In this document: positions 5,401 through 28,847 of the stretch, piece by piece
How the letters are laid out: each line of letters opens with the position of its first letter
Numbering within the stretch: position 1 is the stretch's first letter
Made by a program: the position numbers and the translations under genes
Notes under the pieces: generated by a model
Database searches by the model: none
The model's input: only the letters and a program-made list of their open reading frames with translations
What the model was told of the DNA's origin: nothing
Source of the DNA: a virus
Taxonomy: Duplodnaviria; Heunggongvirae; Uroviricota; Caudoviricetes
Virus record (IMG/VR): IMGVR_UViG_2734482545_000011
Length of the DNA stretch: 40,605 bases
Strand: one strand, 5' to 3'

Positions 5401-5656
5401 TATCGAAAAATTTCTTTAATTCAGAATAGCGTCGACCGACAGTATCAATTGCGGCACCAACTGGATCAATAGCTGCTTTTAATTTTGCGAGCGCGTTCTT
5501 CTCATCTTCTGTTGCCTTAGTCACTTTCCCTGCGCTATTTGCAGCAGTTTCCCCAGCCTGCGTCATTTTGACTAATGAGGAGGTCAGATTGTCAGCATTA
5601 TTTTTCGCTCCAGTGCTATCAATAATTATTGCGAGACGCGAGGTTTGCTCTGCCAT
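2423..5656 (-). CDS. tail tape measure protein
   Basis: 1077-aa ORF rich in Ala/Gln/Glu/Lys coiled-coil sequence with a Gly-rich hydrophobic central segment; located between the GT chaperone and M. AGGAG Shine-Dalgarno upstream of the ATG. Confidence 0.9.
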
Positions 5657-5674
5657 TTATTAAAACTCCTGACA

Positions 5675-5700
5675 ACAAAAAACCCACCGCGAAGTGGGTT
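5675..5700 (-). terminator. hairpin plus U-run just upstream of the tape measure start (attenuator-like)
   Basis: Minus strand AACCCAC-TTCGCG-GTGGGTT followed by TTTTTGTTG; 7-bp stem. Lies between the GT stop and the tape measure RBS. Confidence 0.35.
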
Positions 5701-5821
5701 TCAGGCGACATAATAGTAGATATAGCGATTACGAGGCCACGCAATGCTTTTCTCCAGGAGCATCATCGATTTAATTAAAGACACCATCACATCTCTGTAA
5801 CAGAGTGTACGTAATTAACAA

Positions 5822-6579
5822 CTACACACACTGCTCCTGAAAATACTGGTCATCCAGTGCAAAGATCACTGCTTCAAATTCATCGCGCTCAATCAATACC
5901 GGATGAGTGGCTAAATATTCATTTATCTCTGTCAGAGATAAAGGCAAAGGCACCCCAGCCATTCCAGCATAACGTCGGGCACGGGATATTACCGAATAGG
6001 CGTACAACAACTCCTTAAGCACCGGGTCTATTTCTGGTTCCGGTATCGGTGGCAACCTGAGTTTTTCTCGCTTCCATCTTGCCTTTTCCCCCCTTTCTCC
6101 CCCGAACTCCGATAACCACCGCTGGGCAGCTATGGCTTTTTTATCGTATCCTGCTTCTGCTGCTCTTTACCCTGGGCGATGCTGGCTGCTTCTGCAAGGA
6201 TCTGCCAGTACAACTCTGGATTCTGCTTAAGCAGCGCGATCCCTCGTTCTGCCGTATATTCCAGTGCAACCTCAACACCATTAACCAGTTCACCAACCCC
6301 TTTCCAGTCTTTCAGCAGATAACGAGCGGCATTATCAATGAGTAAATCATCAACAGAATCCACCTCGGAAACCTTTGAAATATCAAACTCCTTCGTTCCG
6401 ACGTGCAAACTGGCATCCATTTTCTCAATGTGGCGACGGATTAATGCATTACGGGAGCGATACTGATCGTTATCGCTGCTTGCCACCAACAGTTTTAACC
6501 CGTCTACAGGTTTTAAGTCCTTCATTGGCGTAAACCAGCGTTCTCCACCAATGATAATTTTCTGATTAAGAATAAACAT
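5822..6579 (-). CDS. tail assembly chaperone GT (-1 programmed frameshift fusion product)
   Basis: G frame ends ...QKQDTIKKP-stop at 6130; the -1 frame stays open from the slippery heptamer through to 5822 (continuation KKAIAAQRWLSEFGGERGEKARWKREKLRLPPIPEPE...QYFQEQCV). Frame arithmetic fits a -1 shift. Confidence 0.6.
6130..6579 (-). CDS. tail assembly chaperone G
   Basis: ORF between major tail and tape measure genes; start placed at an internal Met (MFILNQKIIIGG...) preceded by GAGG; ends with the A-AAA-AAG slippery site 2 codons before its stop. Confidence 0.7.
   Translation of the reverse strand: MFILNQKIIIGGERWFTPMKDLKPVDGLKLLVASSDNDQYRSRNALIRRHIEKMDASLHVGTKEFDISKVSEVDSVDDLLIDNAARYLLKDWKGVGELVNGVEVALEYTAERGIALLKQNPELYWQILAEAASIAQGKEQQKQDTIKKP
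6136..6142 (-). promoter_or_regulatory. -1 ribosomal frameshift slippery heptamer AAAAAAG
   Basis: Plus strand CTTTTTT at 6136-6142 is AAAAAAG on the minus strand, sitting just before the G stop codon (ATA AAA AAG CCA TAG). Confidence 0.6.
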
Positions 6580-9399: not shown

Positions 9400-10539
9400 T
9401 TAACCAAGAATCAGACAACCATGTGCCGGCTTCACTGATGAAACACCCCATGCCAGTCCAACTTCATAGCGCACCTGGCGATACTGACGATACAGTGCAA
9501 TCTGGAACGTAATCCCTGAAATCGGGTCCGTAACATTCATTACATCATCAGCATTATCGCCACCTTCCGGCATTGCCGGAGTACGGGATGCCAGCAGAAA
9601 CGCGTTGCGATCAAACGCCATATTTGCAGTAAAGGCCCCAACAACTGTGATGGCAGTATCATCGGCCAGATCCTGACGCAGTCCGGGCGCTGCAAGAGTA
9701 ATCAGATTGCTGGTCGCTGCTGCCACAACATACTGATTCGGATCACCAGCGAACGTAACAATCTGACCTGCAGAAATACTCCCCGAACCAGTATCAATGG
9801 AAATAAGAACATCGCCTTCTTTTTTCTCTCCATTCACGAGATAACCAGTTGCAGCAACCTTTGGCGCTCGTTTCACACCTGCCGAACTGTGAATATTGAA
9901 TCCCTCCAGACGCCCCAACACGCCCTCACGCAGTAGCTGTTCAGTGCCGGATTCATTCACTTTAAACAATACAGACTGTTTTCCGCGCAAATTAGCAATG
10001 GCAGTGGAGCCAAGCACCATCTGCAGATCGGTTGTCGGTGCGCCGTTATCCTCCAGAACCTGACGAGCCAGAGCAGCATCAGAAAGATCATCTTTAACAC
10101 CAAACGGCGTTGTCCCTGCGGTTCCCACGGCGCGGGAAGCACCGAAATACAACGCACCAAGATCAGCCTCAACCTCGTTTGCAAGGGCGCGAAAAGCCTG
10201 CTTGAACTGATCAGCCAGAATGGTGTTGTAAGTCCCTGAAGGGCCAAGAGCCAGTTGTTCTTCACCATTCCATTTAACCGGTGCCATTTTGGATTTAGTA
10301 ATTTTTACATCAACAGTGCCAATATTTTGATCACCGGTATTCGGAGCTGACGGCCCCGGTACGATATCTTCGGTTTTCGCCTCAGGCGCAACTGGCGCGG
10401 TTACCGTCTGATCTTTTGCTGCGGCGTCAGCTTTTGCGTTTTTTGCTACCGCAGGGATAAAACCTACCTGCTCACGGGATACAACATCCAGGGCGGTATA
10501 AATAGTCGGGATCAACCCGGTCAGGGTATTTCCAGCCAT
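9400..10539 (-). CDS. major capsid protein
   Basis: Track ORF 9400-10632; start placed at the internal ATG (MAGNTLTGLIPTIYTALD...) preceded by AAGGAA, giving 379 aa; downstream of the scaffold gene. Confidence 0.8.
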   Translation of the reverse strand: MAGNTLTGLIPTIYTALDVVSREQVGFIPAVAKNAKADAAAKDQTVTAPVAPEAKTEDIVPGPSAPNTGDQNIGTVDVKITKSKMAPVKWNGEEQLALGPSGTYNTILADQFKQAFRALANEVEADLGALYFGASRAVGTAGTTPFGVKDDLSDAALARQVLEDNGAPTTDLQMVLGSTAIANLRGKQSVLFKVNESGTEQLLREGVLGRLEGFNIHSSAGVKRAPKVAATGYLVNGEKKEGDVLISIDTGSGSISAGQIVTFAGDPNQYVVAAATSNLITLAAPGLRQDLADDTAITVVGAFTANMAFDRNAFLLASRTPAMPEGGDNADDVMNVTDPISGITFQIALYRQYRQVRYEVGLAWGVSSVKPAHGCLILG

Positions 10540-10637
10540 AATTAAATATTCCTTAAAAATTTGCGTAATTGTGAATAGATGGAGTAATGAGCTATCCAGC
10601 CCTGACACCAGCTCCCATCCGGAAGCTGACAAATGTG

Positions 10638-11402
10638 TTAATCAACGATTGTGATACCGTCTTTCAATGCGTTTTGCTTACCTGCAACATCCAGTGCATC
10701 AAAAGCAGAGCGTTTCATCGTTTTCTGACCAATATCATGCTGTGTCGGACGGGAGCCGCCGCCATTGTTGCCACTGGCTTTCAGGATGTAGTCTTTCTGA
10801 GGGTAATTTTCGACAAGGAACTCCAGCGCCTCATCAAACTGCGCCAGTTCGCCAGGCTTCGCGCGGGAATAAATTTTGTTGCCGGAAGCGTCATAAGCAA
10901 CGATCCTCCCTTCTTCCACTTTGAATGCCTGCCCGAAGCGGGCTTGTAATAAATCTGCCGGGATCGCAATTTTATCGGCAATATATTTTGAACCCGCAAA
11001 ACTACCGCCAATCATAGAATCGTAAAGCTGCTTCTCCAGCATCTGAGAGCGTTGCTTTTCTTCATCTAATTGCTGCTGAAAATTTTTCGTAATTTCTGCC
11101 TTAACCTGGTCAACCTGTCCCGCATCGAGCAGCTTTTTCTGGTCGATTTTTGACAGCATTTCCAGTGCCTCGATCGCCTTCTTCGGGTCTTCGATAGCGG
11201 CAAACTTAGCCAGTTTTTCCTCTGCAGCTTCTTTAGCCAGGCGATGATTTTTTGCCTCGCCATTAAGCTCTGTAATTTTTTTTGTCGCCAGCGGTGCATC
11301 GAAGCCAATTTCTTTACCATCGTCGTGCACATAAACTGGCAGGCCAGCAGTATCAATTTCTGCGTATTGTTTTCCGTTAATCTCGACCGTTTTCAGTTTC
11401 AT
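10638..11402 (-). CDS. head scaffolding protein
   Basis: Track ORF 10638-11474; start placed at MKLKTVEINGKQYAEID... (AGGT 7 nt upstream). Charged, helical, Ala/Glu/Lys-rich; between head morphogenesis and capsid genes. Confidence 0.65.
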   Translation of the reverse strand: MKLKTVEINGKQYAEIDTAGLPVYVHDDGKEIGFDAPLATKKITELNGEAKNHRLAKEAAEEKLAKFAAIEDPKKAIEALEMLSKIDQKKLLDAGQVDQVKAEITKNFQQQLDEEKQRSQMLEKQLYDSMIGGSFAGSKYIADKIAIPADLLQARFGQAFKVEEGRIVAYDASGNKIYSRAKPGELAQFDEALEFLVENYPQKDYILKASGNNGGGSRPTQHDIGQKTMKRSAFDALDVAGKQNALKDGITIVD

Positions 11403-11506: not shown

Positions 11507-12622
11507 TTAAATCCCTGCTTTTCTGAATACCTGTGCATCACGCTCACGGAGCTGCTTCAGCGTCAGCCATTCGCCTTTATCGGTGTAAAATTCATCTGGC
11601 GACATACCACCATCCCGAATCAGCTTTGCTCGGCTTTCCCCCACAATCTGTTTTTGTCTGGTGTAAGGCTGACGCAAAAACCATTCCCTGTAGGTTGTAT
11701 CTCCGGCCACCACGCCATCCATGCTGGCCCGCTCAGCCGGGGAAATATCGCGAACATCAATACCCAGTTCCTTCGCTGATTTCAGAATGAACGTTTCCGT
11801 TGAGCGGCAGCAGAAATGAATTTTTCCCGGCCCCTGCAAATAAGGCACGCTGTGACCTACAGGTTTATTATTCAGCGTATATTTGAGGCGATCCCTGATT
11901 CGACATTGTGGCGTAGTACGATTATCAAGCGTTGATAACCATTGCTTACCCTTAATCAAATCATTATTCGCGCTGGCAAAACTCTCACGGGCAGTAGCAG
12001 CAAGATGTCCAACCGCTGTTTTTGCAATGCTGGCCGCATTAGCCCGGCTCATCTGCAATGCACCATCCTGAAATCCCTTACTGACATGTCCCCGAATTTT
12101 TCTTGCGATCTGCTCATTGGTATCCCCCAGCAAAAAACCCTGACGCACTGTATTTGTTATGCGTCTGAGCCGATCCGCCTCAAGATCTGAGGCCCACTCA
12201 CTGAGCAGTCGTCCCTGGAATGGTCGCGCCATTGCAGCGGCATAAAGTGCATCAGGAGAGATACCAACCAGAGGGTGAACATCAGCAACAAAATCAGGTA
12301 GCATAGAATCAAACAGACTTAACTGATAACCAGCCTCATAAATTGCCAGCTCGTTCAGCTCTCCGGAGAGACTGGTAAACATGCTGTTAATAGCAGTGCG
12401 GTTAACCTCTCTGACGCTCGCCAGAAGTGACTCCAGGCGCTTAACGGTAAAACTACCTGGATCGAGGCTGTCCAGTGCTATCAGCAGGCGAGCAGTAAGT
12501 TCCGCATCGCTGTCATTCAGTATTTTCACCATTCTGGCAGCCACGCCAGTGCTATAGCGGGATATCCAGACTGCATGAGCAATTGATTCATCACGCAGCC
12601 GTTCATTCACGGTTTGCATCAT
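11507..12622 (-). CDS. head morphogenesis protein (SPP1 gp7 / Mu F-like minor head protein)
   Basis: 371-aa ORF directly downstream of the portal gene; contains an NRTTPQCR segment as I recall from the F-like family. Assignment by position plus motif memory. Confidence 0.7.
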   Translation of the reverse strand: MMQTVNERLRDESIAHAVWISRYSTGVAARMVKILNDSDAELTARLLIALDSLDPGSFTVKRLESLLASVREVNRTAINSMFTSLSGELNELAIYEAGYQLSLFDSMLPDFVADVHPLVGISPDALYAAAMARPFQGRLLSEWASDLEADRLRRITNTVRQGFLLGDTNEQIARKIRGHVSKGFQDGALQMSRANAASIAKTAVGHLAATARESFASANNDLIKGKQWLSTLDNRTTPQCRIRDRLKYTLNNKPVGHSVPYLQGPGKIHFCCRSTETFILKSAKELGIDVRDISPAERASMDGVVAGDTTYREWFLRQPYTRQKQIVGESRAKLIRDGGMSPDEFYTDKGEWLTLKQLRERDAQVFRKAGI

Positions 12623-14009
12623 TGATTTCCATCAGCATTACACTCTGATTTTTTAATTCATCGATCACTTCCTCTGGACGGGAATCCTGATCGATAAATT
12701 TCAACGCCTGCAACACCCGAACCGCATCAATCTGACGTATATCACCGCCCTGACGCAATGACTGAACAGCCAGCGCGGAGGATGAGTCAAACACCTGGGC
12801 AGATACATCCAGTTCAGTGCGCACATCCACATTGCCACCGCAACTCTCTCCGATCCATTCCGCCATTATCTGGAGAATATTATCGAGGGCATCTTCGAGG
12901 GAGTTCGCCATTGTATAAAGCGGCGAGTTTTCCTGCATTCGCTCTTCATTAGTCTGATCAACAGATTTGGTGGATGTATTTTCAGCACGCAGAAGTTTAG
13001 CGCCGGCATGACGCATCTGATTTTCCAGCTTCTCAAGTGATGTTTCGCCAGATTCTATCGCTGCGCCACTATGTTCAACATATTCGAGGCCATTTTTTGT
13101 TCTGTCCTCAAAAATCGTAGCGGTGGATGCACCAACCGTCAGTTCTTCATTCCTGTCCAGCCCGTAGGCCACCAGCAATGGAACGCGGGCAACATGAAGA
13201 ATATTGTCCTGCTCGCTCTGGCTTTGCCAGTGCTTGATATTCAGCAAGCCAAGATTAAGCAATGGCGGTGTACCACGCATAAATCCTGTTTTCTTCGTGT
13301 ACAGTGTTACCAGAGGAATATCATCACGGCTGGTATTCCATGACTCATGAAGCGTCCAGACAGATTCGCCATTAGTGCCTTCGCTACGTCGATAAATTTC
13401 AACTCGACGGGGCATAATATGGCGGATCTGCTCCACCTTCTTCTGCCCGAAATCATCACCATCAATAATGATGACCTCTTTTATACGCAAATCAGTGAGA
13501 ACAACTTTCCCTTTTTCAACTTTCGATTTCCATCCAATAACCTGGCGTGGATTCAGCATCGTAACGTACGGACGACCACCGGTCGCGTTTTCATCGGCTT
13601 TTGTCCGAATCTCTTTCATATCCGTTCGTGGATAGTCCACCAGCGCATGTGCCACACCATACTGAAATGCGAGGCTGAAAAATTGCTGCGCCCACACATC
13701 CAGTCGGCTCCCCTCCATGTCGATATTTTCTGCATATTCCCTGATTTTTGCCGGCGTTTCCTCACTCAATACTGTCGGCTCTGCAAATATGCGCCCAATA
13801 TTTTGCTTGATGCTTTCTTCATACACAGGAAGTAGCGTAGCCACAGACAGGCGTTTTTTATAAGCGTCTTCATCTTCGTTAGGCCATTTTGGGAGATAAT
13901 TTTCCCCCTGCCTGCGCATTTCAAGCGTACCGCCCATCAGTGCGTCGTTAATATCCCACGCCTCCAGCATATCGTTATAGTCGAGGTTGGGTGTTGATAT
14001 ATCAGCCAT
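12603..14009 (-). CDS. portal protein
   Basis: 468-aa ORF immediately downstream of the terminase large subunit gene; size and position typical of a portal. Confidence 0.8.
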   Translation of the reverse strand: MADISTPNLDYNDMLEAWDINDALMGGTLEMRRQGENYLPKWPNEDEDAYKKRLSVATLLPVYEESIKQNIGRIFAEPTVLSEETPAKIREYAENIDMEGSRLDVWAQQFFSLAFQYGVAHALVDYPRTDMKEIRTKADENATGGRPYVTMLNPRQVIGWKSKVEKGKVVLTDLRIKEVIIIDGDDFGQKKVEQIRHIMPRRVEIYRRSEGTNGESVWTLHESWNTSRDDIPLVTLYTKKTGFMRGTPPLLNLGLLNIKHWQSQSEQDNILHVARVPLLVAYGLDRNEELTVGASTATIFEDRTKNGLEYVEHSGAAIESGETSLEKLENQMRHAGAKLLRAENTSTKSVDQTNEERMQENSPLYTMANSLEDALDNILQIMAEWIGESCGGNVDVRTELDVSAQVFDSSSALAVQSLRQGGDIRQIDAVRVLQALKFIDQDSRPEEVIDELKNQSVMLMEINDANRE

Positions 14010-14011
14010 AA

Positions 14012-15322
14012 TTAAATCCGAAGTGATGTGACTCTTCCGGTCGGTTTGACAATAGGGAATTGCTTAACGATGAAATAACCTCCGGCATCATTCGGGTGAT
14101 CATTGCCAGATTTTTTATCAGGCTCCCCCTTCTCATCCCAGACCTGTTGCTCCAGAGATTCGGCATATAACGGGCAACGCTTCACATTAACTTTATAGCG
14201 ACGCTCACCATTGGCATTGCAGAACATTGCATTCATTGAGTTAACGCGATCTTTTACTGGCGGGTTCGAGCTGTTCACCACAACGTTAAAACCAGCCTGC
14301 TTAAGCTGGGCTATATCCGTCGTACTTGCGTTACTTGATTTTCTGGAATCCCCGGAAGCATCTGGATAAATATAAATTTCCCTCACTTTCCGGTAATCAT
14401 TCCCATCATACAGCCAGAAGCGTTCTTTAATGATGCGGATCATATCCGGCGTATCGTAGGCATTGATGATTTCAGTTACCGCACATGGAAGCCCCAAACG
14501 CAGCACATGGACGATTCCCGCCATCTTTCCAACGTTAAAATCCATCCCAATATAAATCGGCTCCCCTGGCTGCTCCACTTCTTCGCAATTATTCAGTTTC
14601 CGGTCAAACTGATGGTAAACAGTACCACTTGTCAGGTTAGTAAACTGTCCTCGAAGATAGGCTTTAATCAGCTCTGGAGGGTATGATTCAAGAAGCGAAG
14701 GAATGTAATCTGCTGGCAGGTTCTTTTCATTATCGAAAGTAGATGCCTGCACCAGACCATACAGTGAGGCCAGCTCTGTTTTTTCACGCACGGCTTTAAC
14801 AAACTGCTCGTAGACAAATTTGAATCCTTCCGGCGTGGTTGTAACGTCAATACCGTTGCGAAGTCCATCAATCTTATAACGCATACGTGCAATTATCTTG
14901 CGCCACGCCGTTCTGGCTTTTTCCTTCGGCAAAATGTCCAGTTCATCCACCAACGCATTACCAATTTTGAAACCGACGATCGTTTGTGGCTTCTCCATCG
15001 ATCTGCAGATAGTGGTTCCCCGATACTGGCGTCCGTAATAAAAGTGAACCTCTTTATTTCCCTCATTAATTTTTACGTTCAATCCCCAGTCAGCAGCAAC
15101 TTCTTCCACTGTAGGGTAAAAAATATCGCGAATTTGGGGATACGTTGGCGCAAAATATCCCTGATTTATACCTGGATGCTCCCAAATCCCCTTGCATATG
15201 CCGCCACACCCAACCCATGTTTTGCCCGAGCCAAAACCAGCAATATAGGCTTTAAATTTATGGGGCATTGAAAGAAATCGCGCCTGAGGCACATTAAGCG
15301 TCGGAGAGATCATCTTCATCAC
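14012..15322 (-). CDS. terminase large subunit
   Basis: 436-aa ORF with Walker A-like AGFGSGKT near the N-terminus and an acidic C-terminal nuclease-like region; follows the TerS gene. Confidence 0.9.
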   Translation of the reverse strand: MMKMISPTLNVPQARFLSMPHKFKAYIAGFGSGKTWVGCGGICKGIWEHPGINQGYFAPTYPQIRDIFYPTVEEVAADWGLNVKINEGNKEVHFYYGRQYRGTTICRSMEKPQTIVGFKIGNALVDELDILPKEKARTAWRKIIARMRYKIDGLRNGIDVTTTPEGFKFVYEQFVKAVREKTELASLYGLVQASTFDNEKNLPADYIPSLLESYPPELIKAYLRGQFTNLTSGTVYHQFDRKLNNCEEVEQPGEPIYIGMDFNVGKMAGIVHVLRLGLPCAVTEIINAYDTPDMIRIIKERFWLYDGNDYRKVREIYIYPDASGDSRKSSNASTTDIAQLKQAGFNVVVNSSNPPVKDRVNSMNAMFCNANGERRYKVNVKRCPLYAESLEQQVWDEKGEPDKKSGNDHPNDAGGYFIVKQFPIVKPTGRVTSLRI

Positions 15323-16388
15323 TCCTTACTCTGGCATCAACCACATTAATATTGATCGCCACAGGCTGGGGATGTTCATTATCTTCCACCGTTTCGATCT
15401 CTTTGCGCAGCTTCTGGTTTTCCATTCTGCGCCGTTCAATTTCCAGTTCCCGTAGCCGCTTATCTGCACATAAAGCCCCGCCAGCAGAAAACAAACGCAA
15501 CAATTCACGCCGGGCGGCAGCCTTATCCTCCAGCAGGATCTCAACGCCGAATTTTCCGAATTTTGCCCCTGCATATAATTGCCGCGCATCCCCATCAAGC
15601 AGAGTGGTATCAGCCATATAAAGCTGTCCCGTTCCCTCACCGCAGCACTTCGGGCAGTCCGGATTGGGTATGGCGTTATCAACAAAGCCGAGGCCTCCAT
15701 ATTCCGGTTCGGGTTTGCCATCTCTGGAAGCCTGCGCCGCTGCCTTGTCGAATTCTGCTATATCGCGCCACTGGTAGAGATGATTCTCGCCCCAGCAATA
15801 ACGGCAGTTAACACGGCGAAATTGTGCAAGCTGATTGGGGTCGGCCAGGACAATAGCCATCAACTGACTCACTAGTAAATCCAGGTCTGCGGTATAGCGT
15901 TTCTGGTACTGATTGCGGAAGTAGCTGATAGCGCGAAAAACCCTGGCATTTCTAAGCATACGACTGGCGTTGCTGTTAGCTGTCGCACCTTGCCCCTCAT
16001 AACCGGCTAGTCGGTACGCCTCTGTCGGCTTTTTACCCTGAGCAACAAGCATCGCAAACTTAGCCTGCTGGTCAGAAATGCCGAATTCATCGGGACAGAA
16101 CGAAAATTCCTCCGCGTCGCCCTCATTCAGGCCCGCATCGAATACTGGCTTTTTTTCCTGAGATTTTTCGTTCCGCTTTTGTGCAGTCTGCGCAGATTTT
16201 TTCTGCGCACTTTTTTGCGCAGTTTTGCACATTTCTGTCTGCGCATTTTTCGGAGTTTTTTTGATGTAACGACGGGCTGTTGCGTAATTCAGTCCCCTTG
16301 CTTCACACCATGCCACCGGAGATATACCGGAGCGGGTGTATTCAGCAATATACTCCTGCTGCAACGCCCCCCAGTCCGGTCTGCTCAT
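15294..16388 (-). CDS. terminase small subunit (HTH N-terminus)
   Basis: 364-aa ORF immediately upstream of TerL, with an N-terminal helix-turn-helix-like segment and a Lys/Gln-rich linker. Confidence 0.65.
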   Translation of the reverse strand: MSRPDWGALQQEYIAEYTRSGISPVAWCEARGLNYATARRYIKKTPKNAQTEMCKTAQKSAQKKSAQTAQKRNEKSQEKKPVFDAGLNEGDAEEFSFCPDEFGISDQQAKFAMLVAQGKKPTEAYRLAGYEGQGATANSNASRMLRNARVFRAISYFRNQYQKRYTADLDLLVSQLMAIVLADPNQLAQFRRVNCRYCWGENHLYQWRDIAEFDKAAAQASRDGKPEPEYGGLGFVDNAIPNPDCPKCCGEGTGQLYMADTTLLDGDARQLYAGAKFGKFGVEILLEDKAAARRELLRLFSAGGALCADKRLRELEIERRRMENQKLRKEIETVEDNEHPQPVAININVVDARVRSDEDDLSDA

Positions 16389-16391
16389 CAG

Positions 16392-16643
16392 TTAGTCCTG
16401 ATTTTTATCCACCCTGAGTAGTTCGCGCAGAGCAAAGGCATCCCCTTTTCTGGCAAGCTTAAACAATGCCGCTCGTAACTCGGCTTCACCTTTCGCTCTG
16501 CCCTTACGGATGGCCGCATAAAAATCTGTCATTGCTTCCCGATTTTCTTTCAGTCGGTTCAGATCAACATCCAGAACGTCAGCGATTTGTTGTGCAGTCA
16601 TCCGGCACGCTGCCAGAGACTCGACTTTCGAATACGGAATCAT
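16392..16643 (-). CDS. small DNA-binding-like protein upstream of terminase
   Basis: 83-aa ORF; helical, basic C-terminus. The start may be the internal Met (MTAQQIADVLDV...), which would reduce the overlap with the upstream gene. Confidence 0.4.
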   Translation of the reverse strand: MIPYSKVESLAACRMTAQQIADVLDVDLNRLKENREAMTDFYAAIRKGRAKGEAELRAALFKLARKGDAFALRELLRVDKNQD

Positions 16644-17529
16644 TTGTCACCCCCATTGATATGCAGGGTGTCTTCTTCCTGTATTTTTCGTGAAGGATTT
16701 TTACTGCAGCGTTGTTCCAGGTGACCTGATGGTGAATGCGTTTATGACTGGCACCCATAAGTGAGATTTTTACGCACGACGGCGCATACATGACGGAGTA
16801 AAAACTTTTAACGTAGGTTCCGGAATCCAGATACAGCTCGGTCATTCCGCCGCTGTTTTTCTGCGTCTGTTTCTGCCCTAACTGGACAGCACCGATCGTC
16901 ATAAACAATTCACCACAGCGACCGAGATTCGTGTACGTATTCACATCCTCGTTAATGCGCCCCATGAATGAGAACGGTCGATCAACCGAACAGATAAAGC
17001 TGTTCATTGCCTTGCGTTTCACCCACGAAGCATGGCCGCCATTGTCACCAAGAAAATCCCCGCCCTGCGACATAGCGATGGAAAGAGCAGGTATTGATTC
17101 GTAGTACGCAAGCATTTCAGAAAGGATCTCATCCAGTTTCCTTATCGGGAAATAGGCCTGGTCATAGTTGCGATCCACCCGAAACTGGAACTCGTGATAA
17201 TCATCATCGAGCTGAATGAAGTATTTACACCCGACCAGTTTTGCCTGGTCGAAACAGGCATTACGGGCGTAAAAAATTGAGCGGCGGTCACTAAAATTAT
17301 CGGCTTCGTCAAAACGACTAGCAATATCGGCTTTGGAAAATACCAGCACCTGTTCACCAAATTCAGCCATGTACTGATGCCGTGTCTTATCTTCATCATC
17401 AACAACGATAAAAATTTTCCCGGTATAGCCAGCACGACGCAACGTCCGGTAAGTCAGAACTTTGTCCGGTCGCCCGTGAGTCAGAATAAAGGCGCAAAAA
17501 TCATCACGCATATTCCTCCTCCCCGCCAT
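16579..17529 (-). CDS. hypothetical protein with GT-A glycosyltransferase-like motifs
   Basis: 316-aa ORF with N-terminal FILTHGRPDKVLTYRTLRRAGYTGKIFIVVDDED and a later IQLDDDYHEF (DxD-like); motif-level resemblance only. Confidence 0.4.
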   Translation of the reverse strand: MAGRRNMRDDFCAFILTHGRPDKVLTYRTLRRAGYTGKIFIVVDDEDKTRHQYMAEFGEQVLVFSKADIASRFDEADNFSDRRSIFYARNACFDQAKLVGCKYFIQLDDDYHEFQFRVDRNYDQAYFPIRKLDEILSEMLAYYESIPALSIAMSQGGDFLGDNGGHASWVKRKAMNSFICSVDRPFSFMGRINEDVNTYTNLGRCGELFMTIGAVQLGQKQTQKNSGGMTELYLDSGTYVKSFYSVMYAPSCVKISLMGASHKRIHHQVTWNNAAVKILHEKYRKKTPCISMGVTNDSVFESRVSGSVPDDCTTNR

Positions 17530-18292
17530 GCATGATCTCCACCATGCGCTGCGTCATTCGGACAAATCCATTTTCAATAGCCTGCTGATAATCAATGATC
17601 ACCAGCGCCGACTCCTCGAAAAGGCACTGAATTTCAGCGGGGGCATGAGCGTAATAGTCCGCAATTCTGCTGAAATTAAACACCGTGTGACGTTCTGCTG
17701 CACACAGGAGGAATTTCTCAATATCAGGATCAAGGGACGCCGAACGTATCCGGCTGATCAGCTCCTGAGTTTTCGTATCGTCGTACAGTTCACTGATATC
17801 CGGTTTACCGCCTGACGGCTCATAAACAGGCGTATCAATTTTCGTCGTATACGGCTCCTCCTCATTTCCTGTACCGGGCAAAACATCCGTCAACAGTTCA
17901 TCAATTTCTGCCGGGATGAAGCCTGTCAGGGAGACATCAAAATCAGCATTGATTAGGTCCGACAGCTCCATCCGCAACAGATCTTCATCCCAGCCAGCAT
18001 TCATCGGCAGGCGATTATCTGCCAGGCGGTACGCCTTTTTCTGCTCATCCGTCAGGCCAGACAGAACAATGACCGGAACAGAATCCATTTTGAGCATTTC
18101 AGCCGCCATAACACGACCGTGACCCGCAATAATTTCGCCCTTTTCGTCAATCAGCACCGGATTAGTCCAGCCGAATTGCTTAATACTTTCTACCAGTTGT
18201 GCCACCTGCTCAGTACTGTGCGTCCTGGCGTTGTGCGCATACGGTGACAATTCTTGTAATGGGCGATAGACTATCTTTAATTTCTCGCTCAT
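17504..18292 (-). CDS. ParB-like nuclease domain protein (full-length YnaK-type)
   Basis: 262-aa ORF with an N-terminal ParB/Srx-like segment (NPVLIDEKGEIIAGHGRVMAA); sits downstream of trkG, where I recall K-12 Rac carrying the ParB-like remnant ynaK. Confidence 0.65.
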   Translation of the reverse strand: MSEKLKIVYRPLQELSPYAHNARTHSTEQVAQLVESIKQFGWTNPVLIDEKGEIIAGHGRVMAAEMLKMDSVPVIVLSGLTDEQKKAYRLADNRLPMNAGWDEDLLRMELSDLINADFDVSLTGFIPAEIDELLTDVLPGTGNEEEPYTTKIDTPVYEPSGGKPDISELYDDTKTQELISRIRSASLDPDIEKFLLCAAERHTVFNFSRIADYYAHAPAEIQCLFEESALVIIDYQQAIENGFVRMTQRMVEIMHGGEEEYA

Positions 18293-18309: not shown

Positions 18310-18345
18310 ATAAAACGCACCCCAGCAGCCAGTGCTACTGGGGGC
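18310..18345 (-). terminator. GC-rich hairpin plus U-rich tail after trkG
   Basis: Minus strand CCCCAGTAGC-ACTG-GCTGCTGGGG (about 10 bp with one G-U) followed by TGCGTTTTATT. Confidence 0.45.
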
Positions 18346-18429: not shown

Positions 18430-19887
18430 TTAGGAGCGCCAAAAAAAACCTGAAAACAATATAATAACAGGATAAATTTCAAGGCGACCAAGAATCATAG
18501 CTATGCACATTAAATATTTTGCAATGTCATTAAGCACTCCGAATGACGATGCAGTAGCCCCAAAACCTAATCCCATATTATTAATACATGCAGCCACTGT
18601 TGCAAATGATGTAAGAAAATCATATCCCATACCATTTAACACCAGTATAAAAAACACCGTGAAGAGAGTATAAAGAAAAAAGAAACTCCATACAGACCTC
18701 ATTACACGATCTGTAACTATCTTCCCTCCTACATTTACACTCAACAACGCTCTGGGATGAGAAAGCTGATTTATCTCGTGTTTGCTTTGTTTGAAAAGTA
18801 TAAGAAATCGAAGTGACTTAATTCCACCACAGGTTGAACCTATACATCCCCCAAAGAAACTTGACAACAGCAAAAACACTATCGTGTGCGTGGGCCAGTT
18901 TGCATAATCCTGCGTAGCTAAACCATTATCAGTGAGCATGGAGCTGGCAAGAAAAAACGAATGAATAAAACTTCCATGCAAGTCATACATACCTATATGC
19001 CAGACCTGGAAAGAGGTAACAATGATCACCCCTAAGGCTATTAACAGAAAGAAACGAAGTTCAATATCTCTGATTAAAGGTTTTATCGTTTTTCTGCTAA
19101 TAACAATATACCAAAGAGTGAAGTTGAAAGCCGATAGCAGGGAAAAAGAACCAGCCACCAGCTCAACCAAATAGTTATTAAAATATCCGATACTCTCGCT
19201 ATGAGTTGAGAAACCACCAAGCGAAACTGTGGAAATCCCGTGACAAATAGCATCAAACAAAGGCATTCCTGCAAGTCTATAACAGACAATACAAGCAATA
19301 CCTAATAAAGAATAAGTTATCCACAGTGTCCGTGACGTATCGGCCAGGCGGGGAGTGAGTTTGTCATCCTTAAATGGCCCCGGCATTTCTGACTGATAAA
19401 GCTTTGCACCACCAATACCCAATAATGGCAATACTGCAACCGCCAGAACAATAACTCCTAAACCACCTATAAAATTTAACTGTGACCGATAGTACAAATA
19501 TGCCCGAGGTAATGAACTAACATCATCAATTACAGTTGCTCCTGTTGTTGTTATTCCAGAAACCCCTTCAAACAGAGCATCAATGAACGTTAAATTAAGT
19601 TCTGAGTCAATCCATAAAGGGAATGCACTAATAACAGAAAACAAAATCCAAAACATTACAATTATAATAAACCCATCACGGGTACGTAATTGAATGCCAG
19701 ATTTCTTAGTTGTATACCACGCTCCGCCACCAATGCAAAAAAATATAACGAAAGTTATAAAGAAAACGAACAGGCTTTTTTCTTTATAAAACAATGCTAC
19801 AACCATTGGTGGCAACATTGAAAGACTATAGAGCCAAACCAGGAACCCACACATATGAGTAACAACTCTTACATGAGATGTATTCAT
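18430..19887 (-). CDS. trkG: Trk-system potassium uptake protein TrkG
   Basis: Polytopic membrane protein MNTSHVRVVTHMCGFLVWLYSLSMLPPMVVALFYKEK...; 485 aa from the internal ATG (the track start is a TTG 6 codons upstream). Visibly AT-rich gene; trkG is a known Rac cargo gene. Confidence 0.9.
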   Translation of the reverse strand: MNTSHVRVVTHMCGFLVWLYSLSMLPPMVVALFYKEKSLFVFFITFVIFFCIGGGAWYTTKKSGIQLRTRDGFIIIVMFWILFSVISAFPLWIDSELNLTFIDALFEGVSGITTTGATVIDDVSSLPRAYLYYRSQLNFIGGLGVIVLAVAVLPLLGIGGAKLYQSEMPGPFKDDKLTPRLADTSRTLWITYSLLGIACIVCYRLAGMPLFDAICHGISTVSLGGFSTHSESIGYFNNYLVELVAGSFSLLSAFNFTLWYIVISRKTIKPLIRDIELRFFLLIALGVIIVTSFQVWHIGMYDLHGSFIHSFFLASSMLTDNGLATQDYANWPTHTIVFLLLSSFFGGCIGSTCGGIKSLRFLILFKQSKHEINQLSHPRALLSVNVGGKIVTDRVMRSVWSFFFLYTLFTVFFILVLNGMGYDFLTSFATVAACINNMGLGFGATASSFGVLNDIAKYLMCIAMILGRLEIYPVIILFSGFFWRS

Positions 19888-20024
19888 ATCTAAATATTCT
19901 TTCAATTATAACCACCTTGCTGCAATATTATGATTATACTGTATAAAATTTAACTCCTCTTAGATCTTACTTCACTGTTCCTTATGAAACAATCATCAAA
20001 ATGAATCATATTGTAGTTAAGATT

Positions 20025-21449: not shown

Positions 21450-21845
21450 CTAACCTCGCATGTCAAAGCCAGATTTCTGAAAATCTCTGTAGACTTCCGG
21501 ATTGTTGAAGGCCGGAAATTTGGCTTTATGAGCTGCGGACTTTATCGCTTCGCAATAGGCTTTATCACCGTTACTGGTAGATATTTTTAACGCCGTGCCA
21601 TCCTGAGAGAATTCCATATGCAACCTGCATTTTTTCCCTTTCCAGTTATGCGGCTCATCAAGTTTGGCATTAATTGCAGCTCTGATTCCCCGCGCTTGCG
21701 CCCCCCATTCATCCTGATCATCCCAGCGTCCTGAACTGCAACTACCTGTAGCAGTAGTTTTGTGGCAATCTGAAGGGTGTAAAGGTGTGCATCCCGCAAC
21801 AAAACCGACCCAAAAAGTCAACATAACGATTTTCTTTAATCCCAC
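21450..21845 (-). CDS. outer-membrane lipoprotein with TolA domain III-like C-terminal domain (paralog 1)
   Basis: 131 aa; GTG start with GAGGAG RBS; signal peptide plus lipobox VAGC; C-terminal part (KKCRLHMEFSQDGTALKISTSNGDKAYCEAIKSAAHKAKFPAFNNPEVYRDFQKSGFD) aligns with paralog 2, including two conserved Cys. Confidence 0.55.
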   Translation of the reverse strand: MGLKKIVMLTFWVGFVAGCTPLHPSDCHKTTATGSCSSGRWDDQDEWGAQARGIRAAINAKLDEPHNWKGKKCRLHMEFSQDGTALKISTSNGDKAYCEAIKSAAHKAKFPAFNNPEVYRDFQKSGFDMRG

Positions 21846-21995: not shown

Positions 21996-22424
21996 TCAGG
22001 GTTTAAAATCCAGCACCCCATTTTGAAATACTTTATATACTTCCGGCGAAGGGGGGGCAGGTATATCAGCATTCTTTATCGCATTCATCGCTTCACGACA
22101 TAAATCGAGGTCTCCACTTTCTCTTTTAACCTCCAGTAGAAGGCCATTCGGGGCCATATGCATTCTCAGTGTACACTCTTTTCCTGAATACTTACTCGCA
22201 TCCCCGAACTGTTTTTCGATGGCGCTCTTGATTTGATGGGCATACAGACGGATATCCTCACTAACATCAGAAGTACGTTCAGATGAACTCACATACTGTG
22301 TCTCTATTGCTTTATCGGAGTAATATGATGTACGGTCATGATAATTTGTCGATACAGCATCAGTGCACCCGATAATAATCCCACTAATAATCAACGTAAG
22401 AATTGATGCGCTACGAAAACCCAT
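21996..22424 (-). CDS. outer-membrane lipoprotein with TolA domain III-like C-terminal domain (paralog 2)
   Basis: 142 aa; lipobox IIGC; C-terminus YAHQIKSAIEKQFGDASKYSGKECTLRMHMAPNGLLLEVKRESGDLDLCREAMNAIKNADIPAPPSPEVYKVFQNGVLDFKP closely matches my recollection of the E. coli TolA C-terminal domain (...GKTCTLRIKLAPDG...GGDPALCQAALAAAKLAKIPKPPSQAVYEVFKNAPLDFKP). Confidence 0.65.
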   Translation of the reverse strand: MGFRSASILTLIISGIIIGCTDAVSTNYHDRTSYYSDKAIETQYVSSSERTSDVSEDIRLYAHQIKSAIEKQFGDASKYSGKECTLRMHMAPNGLLLEVKRESGDLDLCREAMNAIKNADIPAPPSPEVYKVFQNGVLDFKP

Positions 22425-26669: not shown

Positions 26670-27671
26670 TTAGTAATCTGCGTGTTTCGCACTTTTCAGA
26701 AATGCTTTCATATTTTCATTAGGTCGCTCAATTTCGAAGTTACTTCCATATAACTCTTGTAATTTTGGCCATAACTTACTTAATAACCCTCTCCTGCGAT
26801 AAAATGGATGTATCCAAACGGTAGATAGGTACGGAGAATTTGCATTTGAATTGTTTATTGTGACCAGCCCAACTAAACATTGTCGATAACCACTATTATC
26901 CATTGATTGTATTTCTTCGACGAATGGATACGCGATTACATCAGTCCAACCATGATCGGTTGTATCCCATTGCATTCCGTCATGACATTCCTTCGACTGA
27001 TAGCGGCGTAAAGCTACACACGCGAGCTTTTGCCAATCTGGAGAATTAATTGTGATCTCTTCATCGTATGACGCGCCTATTGGAGCGGGTATTGGTCTGA
27101 TTAATCCAGCATGGCATTCATCATAGAACTTCATGTTTCCCTCAGAAACGTTGTGTACGTTGGGTTGCTCCATGTGTGCGCCATTCAAAAATAGCTCTGA
27201 TAGTAGTGTATCTACACTGTAATCTTTATTGATTATTGTCGGCTTAGAGTTTTTCTTATTAAGGCCGCGAGTAACGATTTTTTGATCAATGTTAACAACA
27301 TGGAATAATCCGTCGGGGAGGCTAGCGAACCACGATGGGGCATCGGACCAGAATAGCATGCCTTTTGTACTTCTTAAGAGTTTAATTAAGTTAATACAAG
27401 CTTCTTCACTAGTCTTGCCGTTGATGCGAAGTATGTTAGGACTAAAGTAATATTCATCCATATCAGGGAATGCAGCTTCGCAAAACTCCTGTACATAATT
27501 TAGCACCTGGATTCTACAGAGATCATCATAGCTGGTAATAACTAAGGGGGTATCTTCATTACTATTATGATTATCAATAATGCAATCTATAGCGAGACTT
27601 ACTGCTTTGCGTATCACTTCAGTTGAATCTAACGACTCTAAAAATTTTGTCTTTCGTGTGCGAATATCCAT
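26670..27671 (-). CDS. hypothetical protein, gene B of the AT-rich two-gene operon
   Basis: 333-aa ORF starting 15 nt after the gene A stop (AGGT RBS); AT-rich codon usage; no family recognised by eye. C-terminal ...VWIHPFYRRRGLLSKLW... only weakly recalls a GNAT motif A. Confidence 0.7.
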   Translation of the reverse strand: MDIRTRKTKFLESLDSTEVIRKAVSLAIDCIIDNHNSNEDTPLVITSYDDLCRIQVLNYVQEFCEAAFPDMDEYYFSPNILRINGKTSEEACINLIKLLRSTKGMLFWSDAPSWFASLPDGLFHVVNIDQKIVTRGLNKKNSKPTIINKDYSVDTLLSELFLNGAHMEQPNVHNVSEGNMKFYDECHAGLIRPIPAPIGASYDEEITINSPDWQKLACVALRRYQSKECHDGMQWDTTDHGWTDVIAYPFVEEIQSMDNSGYRQCLVGLVTINNSNANSPYLSTVWIHPFYRRRGLLSKLWPKLQELYGSNFEIERPNENMKAFLKSAKHADY

Positions 27672-27686
27672 GTATGACCTGCGCTA

Positions 27687-28709
27687 TTAAAATTCATGAA
27701 TGAACGGTTTGTCATCTGGTTGCAAAATGGTGGTTTTATTCGTTGCTACATTTAAACTGTTGTAGAGCATAATTGCCAGGTTCGATGCATTTTCAATCAG
27801 CGTTTCAAGATCCTGGTCTGTAATCACTACGAGGTTCCCTTCTTTATCCTTTCCACCACGATGCACTAAGTGATTTCGATTGAGGGTTGCCAATTCAATA
27901 GCTTCTATCGGACAGTCTTTTTGTACTTTTATATCGAATGTAGCTTCATAGCGGTCGATTACCTTTTTAGTGCTATGCCAGCTTGCACTGATCAAGTGTT
28001 CCTTGATTGACCTGATTAGCTCTCCCCTAATTTTCTCGATGGGTTCACCCTTGAAAGGCAACGCAGCAATATCTTTGCTTACTTTAAATTCAGTCTTACC
28101 TTTTTCTATACAATTGGCTATGTAGACATCATCTTTCTCTATAGAATTAATGAATAGCTCAACATAAAGCGTTTCCAAAGCTGTAATAACATTCGTGTAG
28201 AGCAAACTAAGCAAGTGGTTTTTTTGCTGTTGTTCAGTTTTATCTTTTGCAAGTTTTTTTATTTTATCGATATTATCAATGAATTTTAAATACGGATTAC
28301 CGGAAGACGTTACAGCGTCGTAGATATCATCATCGTACCAATCATCTATATTATTTGAGTTTCCAGACCAGTCAAAACATTGTGTTTGTAATTCATCTAC
28401 TAATTCCTCAATATACTCAGATTTAACATATTGACCGAAGATGGATTGTAGTTCTTCGCTCGCATCATACGGCCCGCCATATATGTAAGCATAGCCACCT
28501 TCTCTACTTTCATACGGACAAGCATTTGCCGGATCTTCAAAGTTTTCAAAGAACCAGTTTTTCATTACTTCGAGTTGATCTTTTTTGCTTATGTATTTTA
28601 AAGATTTTAGTGGAACTTTCTTTCCATTAACCTCGAAAACAATTTTCACGATGTAACGCTCCCTTGTATCAATTGCGCAACTATTATACCACAGCGAAAT
28701 ACAGGGCAT
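27687..28709 (-). CDS. hypothetical protein, gene A of the AT-rich two-gene operon (C-terminal HEPN-like R-N-x-x-x-H motif)
   Basis: Track ORF 27687-28778; start placed at the ATG with a perfect TAAGGAGG 6 nt upstream (MPCISLWYNSCAIDTRERYIVKIVFEVNGKK...), 340 aa; C-terminal segment EAIELATLNRNHLVHRGG contains R-N-H-L-V-H (Rx4H). Confidence 0.7.
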   Translation of the reverse strand: MPCISLWYNSCAIDTRERYIVKIVFEVNGKKVPLKSLKYISKKDQLEVMKNWFFENFEDPANACPYESREGGYAYIYGGPYDASEELQSIFGQYVKSEYIEELVDELQTQCFDWSGNSNNIDDWYDDDIYDAVTSSGNPYLKFIDNIDKIKKLAKDKTEQQQKNHLLSLLYTNVITALETLYVELFINSIEKDDVYIANCIEKGKTEFKVSKDIAALPFKGEPIEKIRGELIRSIKEHLISASWHSTKKVIDRYEATFDIKVQKDCPIEAIELATLNRNHLVHRGGKDKEGNLVVITDQDLETLIENASNLAIMLYNSLNVATNKTTILQPDDKPFIHEF

Positions 28710-28747
28710 AACCTGCCTCCTTAAACTAACATACCATGAGCCAGCAA

Positions 28748-28773
28748 TGTCCGCTATTGGCACAAAGCGGACA
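28748..28773 (-). promoter_or_regulatory. 8-bp inverted repeat upstream of gene A (possible operator)
   Basis: TGTCCGCT - 10 bp - AGCGGACA, about 40 bp upstream of the gene A start codon; no U-run follows, so not a terminator. Confidence 0.3.
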
Positions 28774-28847
28774 ACCACGCTAGCTCTCCCCTGTGCCAGA
28801 AAAATGTCAATTTACATATGAACTAATGCTCTTTGATCTAGTAACGT

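Follow-up and report, generated by a model that had tools for sequence, protein, structure and literature searches.

A strictly paired ParB/Srx-family partner and TAGT-family enzyme in a Rac-type Escherichia coli prophage: a candidate two-protein, DNA-directed glycosyltransferase

The stretch of DNA analyzed here (IMG/VR record IMGVR_UViG_2734482545_000011; 40,605 nucleotides, in its full length referred to as the window) is a Rac-type lambdoid prophage of Escherichia coli, with recE, recT, racC, kilR, sieB and the integrase gene located at 33-40 kb. Just upstream of its terminase genes lie two overlapping genes, ynaK and a gene for a glycosyltransferase of the TAGT family, whose products we regard as a candidate two-protein, DNA-directed glycosyltransferase. 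An earlier note, made from the sequence of this DNA, had drawn attention to the pair, and the 262-amino-acid (aa) ParB/Srx-like protein that it described is indeed encoded by an open reading frame (ORF) at this place and matches ParB_N, PHROG 620 and Noc/ParB profiles. The features of the pair are as follows.

17504..18292, minus strand: ynaK, intact, 262 aa, the ParB/Srx-family partner (ORF; ParB_N; PHROG 620)
17993..18292, minus strand: N-terminal domain of YnaK, residues 1-100, ParB/Srx (ParB-CTPase) fold with GHGR (18113..18124) and ADN motifs (PHROG 498, PADLOC)
17816..17851, minus strand: conserved motif YTTKIDTPVYEP in the acidic, predicted-disordered linker of YnaK, consensus Y[TS]xKxxxPxYEP (translation, alignments)
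17528..17800, minus strand: helical C-terminal domain of YnaK, residues ~165-255, with invariant R-H, E, D and Y (alignments)
17504..17520, minus strand: putative translational-coupling junction (AGGAGG 17515..17520; TAGT ATG 17509..17511; ynaK TGA 17504..17506)
16579..17511, minus strand: TAGT-family GT-A glycosyltransferase, most likely 310 aa from Met7 (PF20691; PHROG 842; starts of homologues)
17200..17208, minus strand: DDD, the DXD metal and nucleotide-sugar motif of the TAGT enzyme (invariant)

Read from its first ATG, the TAGT ORF (16579..17529, minus strand) encodes 316 aa, the length given in the earlier note. Its homologues begin at MRDDF, which corresponds to Met7 of this ORF; furthermore, an AGGAGG sequence precedes the ATG of Met7, and this ATG overlaps with the stop codon of ynaK by 8 nucleotides (nt), ATGCGTGA. 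For these reasons, the true glycosyltransferase most likely comprises 310 rather than 316 aa, and its translation is probably coupled to that of ynaK. Hence, the stop/start overlap claimed previously holds, whereas the claimed length probably does not. The final ~25 residues of the enzyme are an extension found in the E. coli lineage and run into the next small ORF.

The motifs IFIVVDDED and IQLDDDYHEF, from which a glycosyltransferase had been suspected, are both present in the translation, and the suspicion proved correct: the protein is a GT-A nucleotide-sugar transferase and belongs to the TAGT family. The Pfam TAGT profile PF20691 is matched from position 4 to 205 of its 205 positions (E=4.1e-34; 118.8 bits against a cut-off of 27.5), and PHROG 842 is matched with E=8e-104. 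R14, D102-D104 and E188-D189 are invariant across 12 homologues, in agreement with the R...DDD...ED pattern of phage GT-A DNA glycosyltransferases (bioRxiv 10.1101/2023.12.21.572611). In the AlphaFold2 (AF2) model, the N-terminal ~150 residues are Rossmann-like and mostly reach a predicted local distance difference test score (pLDDT) >85. Foldseek searches against BFVD returned viral TAGT-domain proteins (E values down to 7e-18; template-modeling (TM) scores of 0.5-0.65), and those against the PDB returned the GT-A enzymes SunS/ThuS, SpsA, glycogenin and collagen galactosyltransferase (GalT) as weak matches (TM 0.3-0.36; E ~3e-4). Two labels attached to this protein in databases need comment. 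RefSeq calls the gene product a 'GREB1-related protein', a name that reflects nothing but the TAGT domain that both proteins have in common; GREB1, unlike the prophage enzyme, is a large protein of eukaryotes, for which O-GlcNAcylation of the oestrogen receptor alpha has been reported (PMC7968844). The label of PHROG 842, 'beta-glucosyl-HMC-alpha-glucosyltransferase', is not transferable either, as the window holds no hydroxymethylcytosine pathway and the enzyme has no BLAST-level similarity to proteins of T-even phages, which a tblastn search with the TAGT protein did not detect at E<=1e-3. We also considered residues ~229-285, situated outside the Pfam model, as a partner-docking extension and rejected this idea, since the partner-less enzyme of Aeromonas phage 65 shares the pattern GG..Y..GT..KS...P...HH.

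The N-terminal domain of YnaK matches ParB_N (PF02195) just over the threshold (E=8.7e-7; 29.3 bits against a cut-off of 26.3), and the protein matches PHROG 620, 'ParB-like partition protein', with E=1.7e-90. A YnaK profile retrieved Noc/ParB/Spo0J structures from the PDB (E=3e-13 to 1e-6), and Foldseek placed Noc, PadC, ParB and Srx, and also SerK, next to the YnaK model, matches that are informative for the N-terminal domain only. Nearest to this N-terminal domain are the ParB domains with which phage DNA methyltransferases begin (PHROG 498, E=6e-51; PADLOC MTase_II, E=1.5e-38). The GHGR and ADN motifs line up with the GERR and EN(LQR) boxes of Noc/ParB proteins, with the last Arg and the Asn retained and the Glu replaced by His. 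Two helices follow, ending in an invariant LxGF (L122-F125; 17918..17929), and lead into the acidic linker, which has low pLDDT values in the AF2 model. The Y, P, Y and E of the linker motif are invariant among the bacterial and archaeal-virus partners (alignment A3), and the Porphyromonas partner added in alignment A4 departs from them solely at the first Tyr. The C-terminal domain has no match in Pfam, in NCBIfam or among PDB sequences; a function could be assigned to it neither from the databases nor from the AF2 model, which is too uncertain in this region. We rejected a role of YnaK as a canonical partition protein of the ParABS type: it has no helix-turn-helix (HTH), there is no parA in the prophage annotation, TIGR00180 gives 38 bits against a cut-off of 58, and the protein carries a charge of -24. 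A general repeat scan for a parS-like cis site near the gene pair gave short, chance-level matches and coding repeats in terS, no dedicated parS search having been made. Membership in a defense system was likewise discarded, as PADLOC returned the methyltransferase-type ParB domain match and nothing else.

A gene of the YnaK family stands directly upstream of the TAGT gene in all 92 of the TAGT-homologue loci that we fetched, and these span enterobacterial prophages, IMG/VR contigs, the Lactobacillus phages phi jlb1 and c5, the Nocardia phage NTR1, the haloarchaeal virus HHTV-2 and Porphyromonas phages. At 27-28% identity, the homologues of the Porphyromonas phages are still paired, and the stop/start overlap is kept in relatives at 4-17 nt. 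At least three large-terminase types follow the cassette (Terminase_6-type, TerL_ATPase-type and lambda GpA-type); as these are unrelated to each other, the cassette moves independently of the packaging machinery. The TAGT enzyme of Aeromonas phage 65, which has no partner, is distant from that of the window (22% identity), and the partner is consequently specific to the TAGT subfamily represented here. Where synonymous sites are unsaturated, the ratio of non-synonymous to synonymous substitution rates (dN/dS) is about 0.07 for the TAGT gene and about 0.12 for ynaK; by this measure, both genes are under purifying selection.

It is not the ParB domain of YnaK that is the constant companion of the glycosyltransferase. 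A profile of the partner core matched 2168 proteins, many of them stand-alone proteins of ~130 aa; the family comprises 1423 clusters at 50% identity, 873 of them at E<=1e-30. Among the best 150 representatives, 86 carry a YnaK-like ParB N-terminal domain, 35 are short, and 29 have an N-terminal region that our narrow ParB N-domain profile did not recognize. The linker motif is also kept in the stand-alone partners, and in Vibrio phage pv27 the gene ahead of the TAGT gene encodes the linker motif and the C-terminal domain only. Judged from such sequences, the unit that travels with the TAGT enzyme is the linker motif together with the C-terminal domain. A metagenomic protein (P0449) unites, in a single chain of 534 aa, a TAGT domain (residues 5-193), a ParB/Srx-like domain, the sequence YTxxIxxPxYEP and the partner C-terminal domain (residues 395-518); since this order of domains is incompatible with read-through of the usual gene order, we take it that the two proteins of the cassette are naturally fused here. 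The N-terminus of 86 out of 100 stand-alone partners (P0243-P0358) bears an xxLF(G) motif, often in the form KQxNLFG, which resembles the QxxLF peptide that binds the beta-clamp. The idea that a beta-clamp-binding motif has here been swapped for the ParB domain of YnaK was downgraded to a lead, since the alignment places xxLF(G) on the invariant LxGF element of YnaK and thereby within the common core.

These data bear directly on the view that the two genes are unrelated neighbors, YnaK being a ParB-like nuclease or partition-type terminase accessory (compare the HNH proteins of cos phages) and the TAGT enzyme serving lysogenic conversion or acting at the cell surface. The site of the pair beside the terminase genes, and beside cos in phage c5, speaks for this view, as do the 'ParB-like nuclease' annotations in databases. 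We nevertheless hold it to be very improbable, given the strict pairing across phyla, the overlapping stop and start codons, the fusion protein and the existence of partner cores that lack a ParB domain. Furthermore, the cassette stands ahead of terminases of three unrelated types and is also found far from any terminase, and its splitting or truncation in several viable phages of Lactobacillus delbrueckii indicates that it is not essential for packaging. As to the cell surface, the TAGT protein carries no signal peptide or membrane annotation, and the prophage annotation contains no partners of the gtrA/gtrB type.

We read eight partner-core neighborhoods, seven of them around stand-alone partners and one (L097) around an enterobacterial YnaK truncated to the core; the TAGT gene is adjacent or in the same small cluster in all eight. 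Plain partner-TAGT pairs are present in five (L092, L095, L096, L097 and L102). More complex are the orders PolA-TAGT-partner-TAGT (L100), partner-CofD-NTP transferase-TAGT beside two N6/N4 DNA methylases and a DnaB-like helicase (L101, 10001..13723), and beta-clamp-like-partner-CofD/HAD-NTP transferase-TAGT-TAGT-RecA (L094, 10001..14631), the HAD match being weak. The larger variant with a CofD-family transferase and a MobA-like NTP transferase, seen in the latter two loci, suggests a more elaborate, possibly phospho-linked glycan. Across the relatives, the neighboring genes encode DNA polymerase A, DnaB, primase, RecA, a beta-clamp-like protein, two N6/N4 DNA methylases, or terminases. The earlier note took it that genes located here act on DNA while it is packaged; this is an assumption and does not amount to a rule. 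Stand-alone cassettes occupy replication modules. In L097, the enterobacterial prophage in which YnaK is reduced to its core (159 aa; pair at 10001..11342), a gene for a 658-aa C5-cytosine DNA methylase with ~300 unassigned residues lies ~4 kb upstream of the pair (3989..5965), followed by an HNH gene.

The same neighborhoods speak to another alternative, in which the cassette targets a small molecule or RNA (a nucleotide, a signal or an RNA, for instance to disarm a host defense signal) and the ParB/Srx domain is an NTP-binding or kinase-like enzyme instead of a DNA clamp. ParB/Srx folds do include ATP-using enzymes, with Srx and SerK among the fold matches of YnaK, and variants that bind ATP and GTP have been reported (PMC12704722); moreover, YnaK has no DNA-binding domain, and the pathway to a hydroxymethylated base is missing. 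Such a target is improbable in our estimate, because the cassette can do without the ParB domain, as the stand-alone cores demonstrate, and the neighborhoods show no link to signaling or RNA, their consistent members being genes for DNA replication, methylation and packaging.

Taken together, we put the chance at about even that YnaK and the TAGT enzyme form a two-protein, DNA-directed glycosyltransferase made late, together with the packaging genes. The modification of DNA is favored because of the membership of the enzyme in the TAGT family, the kinship of the YnaK N-terminal domain with those fused to methyltransferases, and the links of relatives to replication, methylase and terminase genes. 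Characterized members of PF20691 that act on DNA are the T2/T6 enzyme (PMC13216743, PMC13390438) as well as phage GT-A enzymes and the base-J glucosyltransferase JGT (bioRxiv 10.1101/2023.12.21.572611). The role in DNA modification or anti-restriction proposed in the earlier note is thus partly supported and, as a reading, the best-supported one; the precursor pathway for it is absent from this prophage and from the complete small phage genomes. In our model, the TAGT enzyme would be the catalytic GT-A subunit and use a nucleotide-sugar, and the YnaK core, consisting of LxGF, the acidic linker with its YTxKIxxPxYEP motif and the helical C-terminal domain, would bind, activate or target it. The ParB/Srx N-terminal domain would supply a nucleotide-gated engagement with double-stranded DNA. 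Encoded as a coupled pair in the late block that extends from the lysis genes and trkG to the terminase genes, both proteins would be made while concatemeric DNA is packaged, and the phage DNA so decorated might blunt restriction or other DNA-sensing defenses of the next host. We infer the formation of a complex, DNA as the acceptor, the timing and the anti-defense role from the relationships described above; what the sequences themselves show is the family membership, the intact catalytic motifs, the strict pairing, the single fusion protein, the purifying selection and the genomic context. That ParB proteins guide modifying enzymes to DNA at the time of packaging is an older idea, credited to Aravind and co-workers in PMC8256090.

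Several observations weigh against this model. YnaK is strongly acidic (isoelectric point of 4.5; net charge of about -24), and domain searches found no HTH or other recognizable DNA-binding domain in it. The Glu of the GERR box involved in hydrolysis is a His in YnaK, the GxxR arginine is missing in the partner from the Nocardia phage NTR1, and the G-x-x-R motif was not found in 22 of the 86 ParB-bearing partner representatives. The AF2 model of YnaK is confident for its N-terminal half only, its C-terminal domain being too uncertain for fold matching, and that of the TAGT enzyme is of low confidence in the C-terminal half. GREB1, the eukaryotic member of the family, is reported to glycosylate a protein (PMC7968844). 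In the searchable literature we found no experiment on the ynaK-TAGT pair, and nothing relevant on ynaK, the L. delbrueckii phages or HHTV-2.

A further difficulty concerns the acceptor. Characterized TAGT-family enzymes glycosylate 5-hydroxymethyluracil (5hmU; base J), 5-hydroxymethylcytosine (5hmC), or a glucose on 5hmC (PMC13216743, PMC13390438, bioRxiv 10.1101/2023.12.21.572611). Every characterized DNA-acting TAGT enzyme needs a hydroxyl acceptor, with 5hmC or 5hmU provided by a TET/JBP dioxygenase or a hydroxymethylase. Searches with Pfam on the 16 non-structural ORFs of the window, combined with the RefSeq annotation of an identical prophage, detected no 5mYOX or TET/JBP dioxygenase, no thymidylate-synthase-like hydroxymethylase and no C5-methylase, and the window likewise contains no dCMP hydroxymethylase nor an alpha- or beta-glucosyltransferase that would supply glucosyl-5hmC. 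The complete Lactobacillus phages c5 (31.8 kb) and phi jlb1 (38.3 kb) have no annotated dioxygenase or hydroxymethylase, nor any unassigned ORF large enough to encode one, and no TET/JBP enzyme or hydroxymethylase was present within 10 kb of the cassette in ten Pfam-annotated neighborhoods. A ThyX-like fragment and serine hydroxymethyltransferase are encoded near the cassette of one large phage; these look like ordinary thymidylate synthesis. Without a source of 5hmC or 5hmU, the cassette must use an acceptor that is universally available.

One reading of this finding is that the pair is the inactive remnant of a hypermodification cluster of dioxygenase, ParB protein and glycosyltransferase that has lost its dioxygenase. 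ParB and glycosyltransferase genes commonly accompany 5mYOX genes in phages (PMC13229309), no 5mYOX is present in the window, and many E. coli copies of the pair are truncated. A remnant is extremely improbable, as both genes are under strong purifying selection, the catalytic motifs are intact, and the two-gene layout without a dioxygenase recurs in every lineage that we examined, complete phage genomes included; the truncations reflect decay of whole prophages, given that the deletion in strain K-12 also took the terminase and head genes. Like this remnant, a small-molecule or RNA target and the chance vicinity of unrelated genes fit poorly with the data on pairing, selection and context.

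The main rival to our model is the glycosylation of a protein, either of YnaK itself at a Tyr or Thr of its linker, in the manner of glycogenin, or of a packaging, virion or host protein presented by YnaK. Glycogenin, a GT-A enzyme, glycosylates tyrosine. The partner core, the sole constant companion of this TAGT subfamily, has an acidic, disordered linker in which Tyr/Thr residues are conserved, YnaK is acidic and devoid of a DNA-binding domain, and the pathway to a hydroxyl acceptor in DNA is not present. SunS/ThuS, glycogenin and collagen GalT, the top matches among solved structures, glycosylate peptides or proteins, and GREB1 has been reported as a protein O-GlcNAc transferase (PMC7968844). 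These structural matches are, however, weak (TM 0.3-0.36; E ~3e-4) and generic for GT-A folds. The ParB domain of YnaK is of the type fused to DNA methylases, stand-alone cassettes reside within replisome and DNA-methylase clusters, some of them with two TAGT enzymes and a CofD/NTP transferase as one would expect for a glycan built on DNA, and all characterized prokaryotic and viral members of the family act on DNA. On balance, we consider a protein target unlikely, while granting it real weight. If DNA is the target, the YnaK core and the TAGT enzyme might by themselves suffice to glycosylate it without any hydroxymethylpyrimidine precursor, at a canonical base, at another universal position of DNA, or at an acceptor created by the partner core. 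We advance this specific proposal tentatively and judge it rather doubtful.

Several characterized systems resemble the cassette in part. The ParB proteins that activate thymine dioxygenases (5mYOX) of phages start with a nucleotide-binding domain, which is followed by a short helical segment, a long disordered linker and a C-terminal domain; they have no DNA-binding HTH and are needed only on double-stranded DNA (O'Toole et al., PNAS 2026, PMC13229309); they are encoded beside a post-replicative DNA-modifying enzyme, often near glycosyltransferases and terminases (PMC13229309). By AF2 secondary structure, pLDDT and our alignments, set against this published description, YnaK shows the same domain layout. 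In contrast to the 5mYOX systems, the enzyme adjacent to YnaK is a glycosyltransferase, no 5mYOX occurs in anything that we examined, and the conserved part of YnaK is the linker motif with the C-terminal domain, which can exist without a ParB domain. Fusions of ParB domains with DNA methyltransferases are enriched in prophages (PMC12704722), and it is their N-terminal ParB domain that the YnaK N-terminal domain resembles most. Here, unlike in these fusions, the modifying enzyme is a separate, translationally coupled glycosyltransferase, and the partner possesses an extra, dedicated C-terminal domain. In 7-deazaguanine DNA modification, the base-modifying DpdA requires the ParB-like NTPase DpdB on double-stranded DNA. 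That system performs base exchange by a transglycosylase and belongs to a bacterial defense island, whereas ynaK and its companion are part of a phage late operon. With the T2/T6 beta-glucosyl-HMC-alpha-glucosyltransferase, the GT-A enzymes of phage C5-methyltransferase/5mYOX clusters and the kinetoplastid base-J glucosyltransferase, the TAGT enzyme shares the Pfam family, the GT-A fold and the R...DDD...ED pattern. It differs from them in that their substrates (5hmC, 5hmU or a sugar on 5hmC) cannot be made by the window prophage, and from known TAGT enzymes in that its subfamily has an obligate partner protein.

The cassette seems to be dispensable in culture. In the virulent L. delbrueckii phages phiLdb (KF188410), Ld17 (KJ564037), LL-Ku (AY739900) and Ld25A (KJ564036), the TAGT gene appears to be split, shortened or represented by its C-terminal end only; in Ld25A, the remnant lies under a gene annotated as a ParB nuclease, and phages c5 and PMBT4 keep the TAGT gene intact. 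Many copies of the pair are also truncated in E. coli. From these degraded copies we conclude that the module is accessory and not essential. Of 5426 complete E. coli genomes, 1610 contain a match to the 2.15-kb region with the pair, and in 867 the match extends over 80% or more of this region; ten deposited phage records match as well. In strain K-12, 87 codons of ynaK have survived a deletion that joins them to ydaY, a gene of the tail region, and that has eliminated the genes for the glycosyltransferase, the terminase and the head. By sequence, the window thus holds the intact state of the gene whose K-12 fragment is known as ynaK. RefSeq names this gene product a 'ParB/Srx family N-terminal domain-containing protein'. 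In strain EC2, an identical, intact 262-codon ynaK is labeled a C-terminally incomplete pseudogene by RefSeq (L001 21736..21993, equal to window 18035..18292), a label apparently modeled on the 87-aa fragment of K-12 (L099 4378..4641).

The surroundings of the pair in the window comprise the following features.

18320..18343, minus strand: terminator-like hairpin in the gap between the trkG moron and ynaK (consensus match only)
16392..16643, minus strand: 83-aa ORF (orf83) in the gap between the TAGT and TerS genes, packaging block (matches part of a small-terminase PHROG)
15294..16388, minus strand: TerS, small terminase subunit (domain/PHROG match)
14012..15322, minus strand: TerL, large terminase subunit (domain/PHROG match)
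12603..14009: portal gene, downstream of the terminase genes

The location just upstream of the terminase genes given in the earlier note is therefore accurate, with the 83-aa ORF, TerS, TerL and the portal gene following the pair in this order; an 83-aa gene sits at the same position in L097. A cluster of direct repeats (TCTGCGCA...TTTTTT; spacing of 12-36 nt) in the 5' part of the small-terminase gene (16164..16263) encodes a repeated AQK-rich stretch and could mark the pac region. On the other side of the pair, a potassium-transporter moron, trkG (18430..19905, minus strand), lies between the lysis genes and ynaK and has its own terminator-like hairpin ahead of ynaK. This hairpin sets trkG apart as a separate insert and makes ynaK and the TAGT gene the first genes of the packaging block. 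Farther away, upstream of the holin gene, two ORFs (21450..21845 and 21996..22424, minus strand) carry TolA C-terminal domains (E=1e-14 and 2e-23) and possibly encode decoys against Tol-dependent phages or colicins. An island of low G+C content (0.38-0.41 versus ~0.48) at 26670..28778 (minus strand) contains adjacent ORFs of 333 and 363 aa, the former with a weak GNAT match (E=9e-4) and the latter with a weak match to a HEPN/RES N-terminal domain (E=2e-4). PADLOC gave no match for either ORF; the island is possibly an uncharacterized defense or toxin-antitoxin moron of the nin region.

Both protein families and the family-level gene names in RefSeq are already known, and a general connection of ParB proteins with glycosyltransferases and terminases had been recognized earlier. 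Not found described in the searchable literature are a TAGT subfamily tied to an obligate partner, in which a new motif and a C-terminal domain form the conserved unit, the optional fusion of this unit to a ParB domain of the methyltransferase type, the independence from any pathway to hydroxymethylpyrimidines, and the spread from E. coli to haloarchaeal viruses. Glycosylation of phage DNA is understood only where a hydroxymethylated pyrimidine comes first, and 'solitary TAGTs' are explicitly called functionally undefined (PMC13216743). The cassette represents one large and coherent class of such solitary enzymes, always partnered, independent of dioxygenases and hydroxymethylases, and spanning bacteria and archaea; it is found, moreover, in an inducible-looking type of prophage of the best genetic model organism. 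Were the DNA to be glycosylated directly, an undescribed DNA modification would exist in temperate phages residing in about one sixth to one third of the complete E. coli genomes, and in phages of Firmicutes, Actinobacteria, Bacteroidota and haloarchaea as well. If DNA is modified, the cassette would stand for a new acceptor chemistry, a new layer of phage counter-defense in E. coli and a further job for the ParB fold; if a protein is modified, it would provide the counterpart, in bacterial viruses, of protein glycosylation of the GREB1 type.

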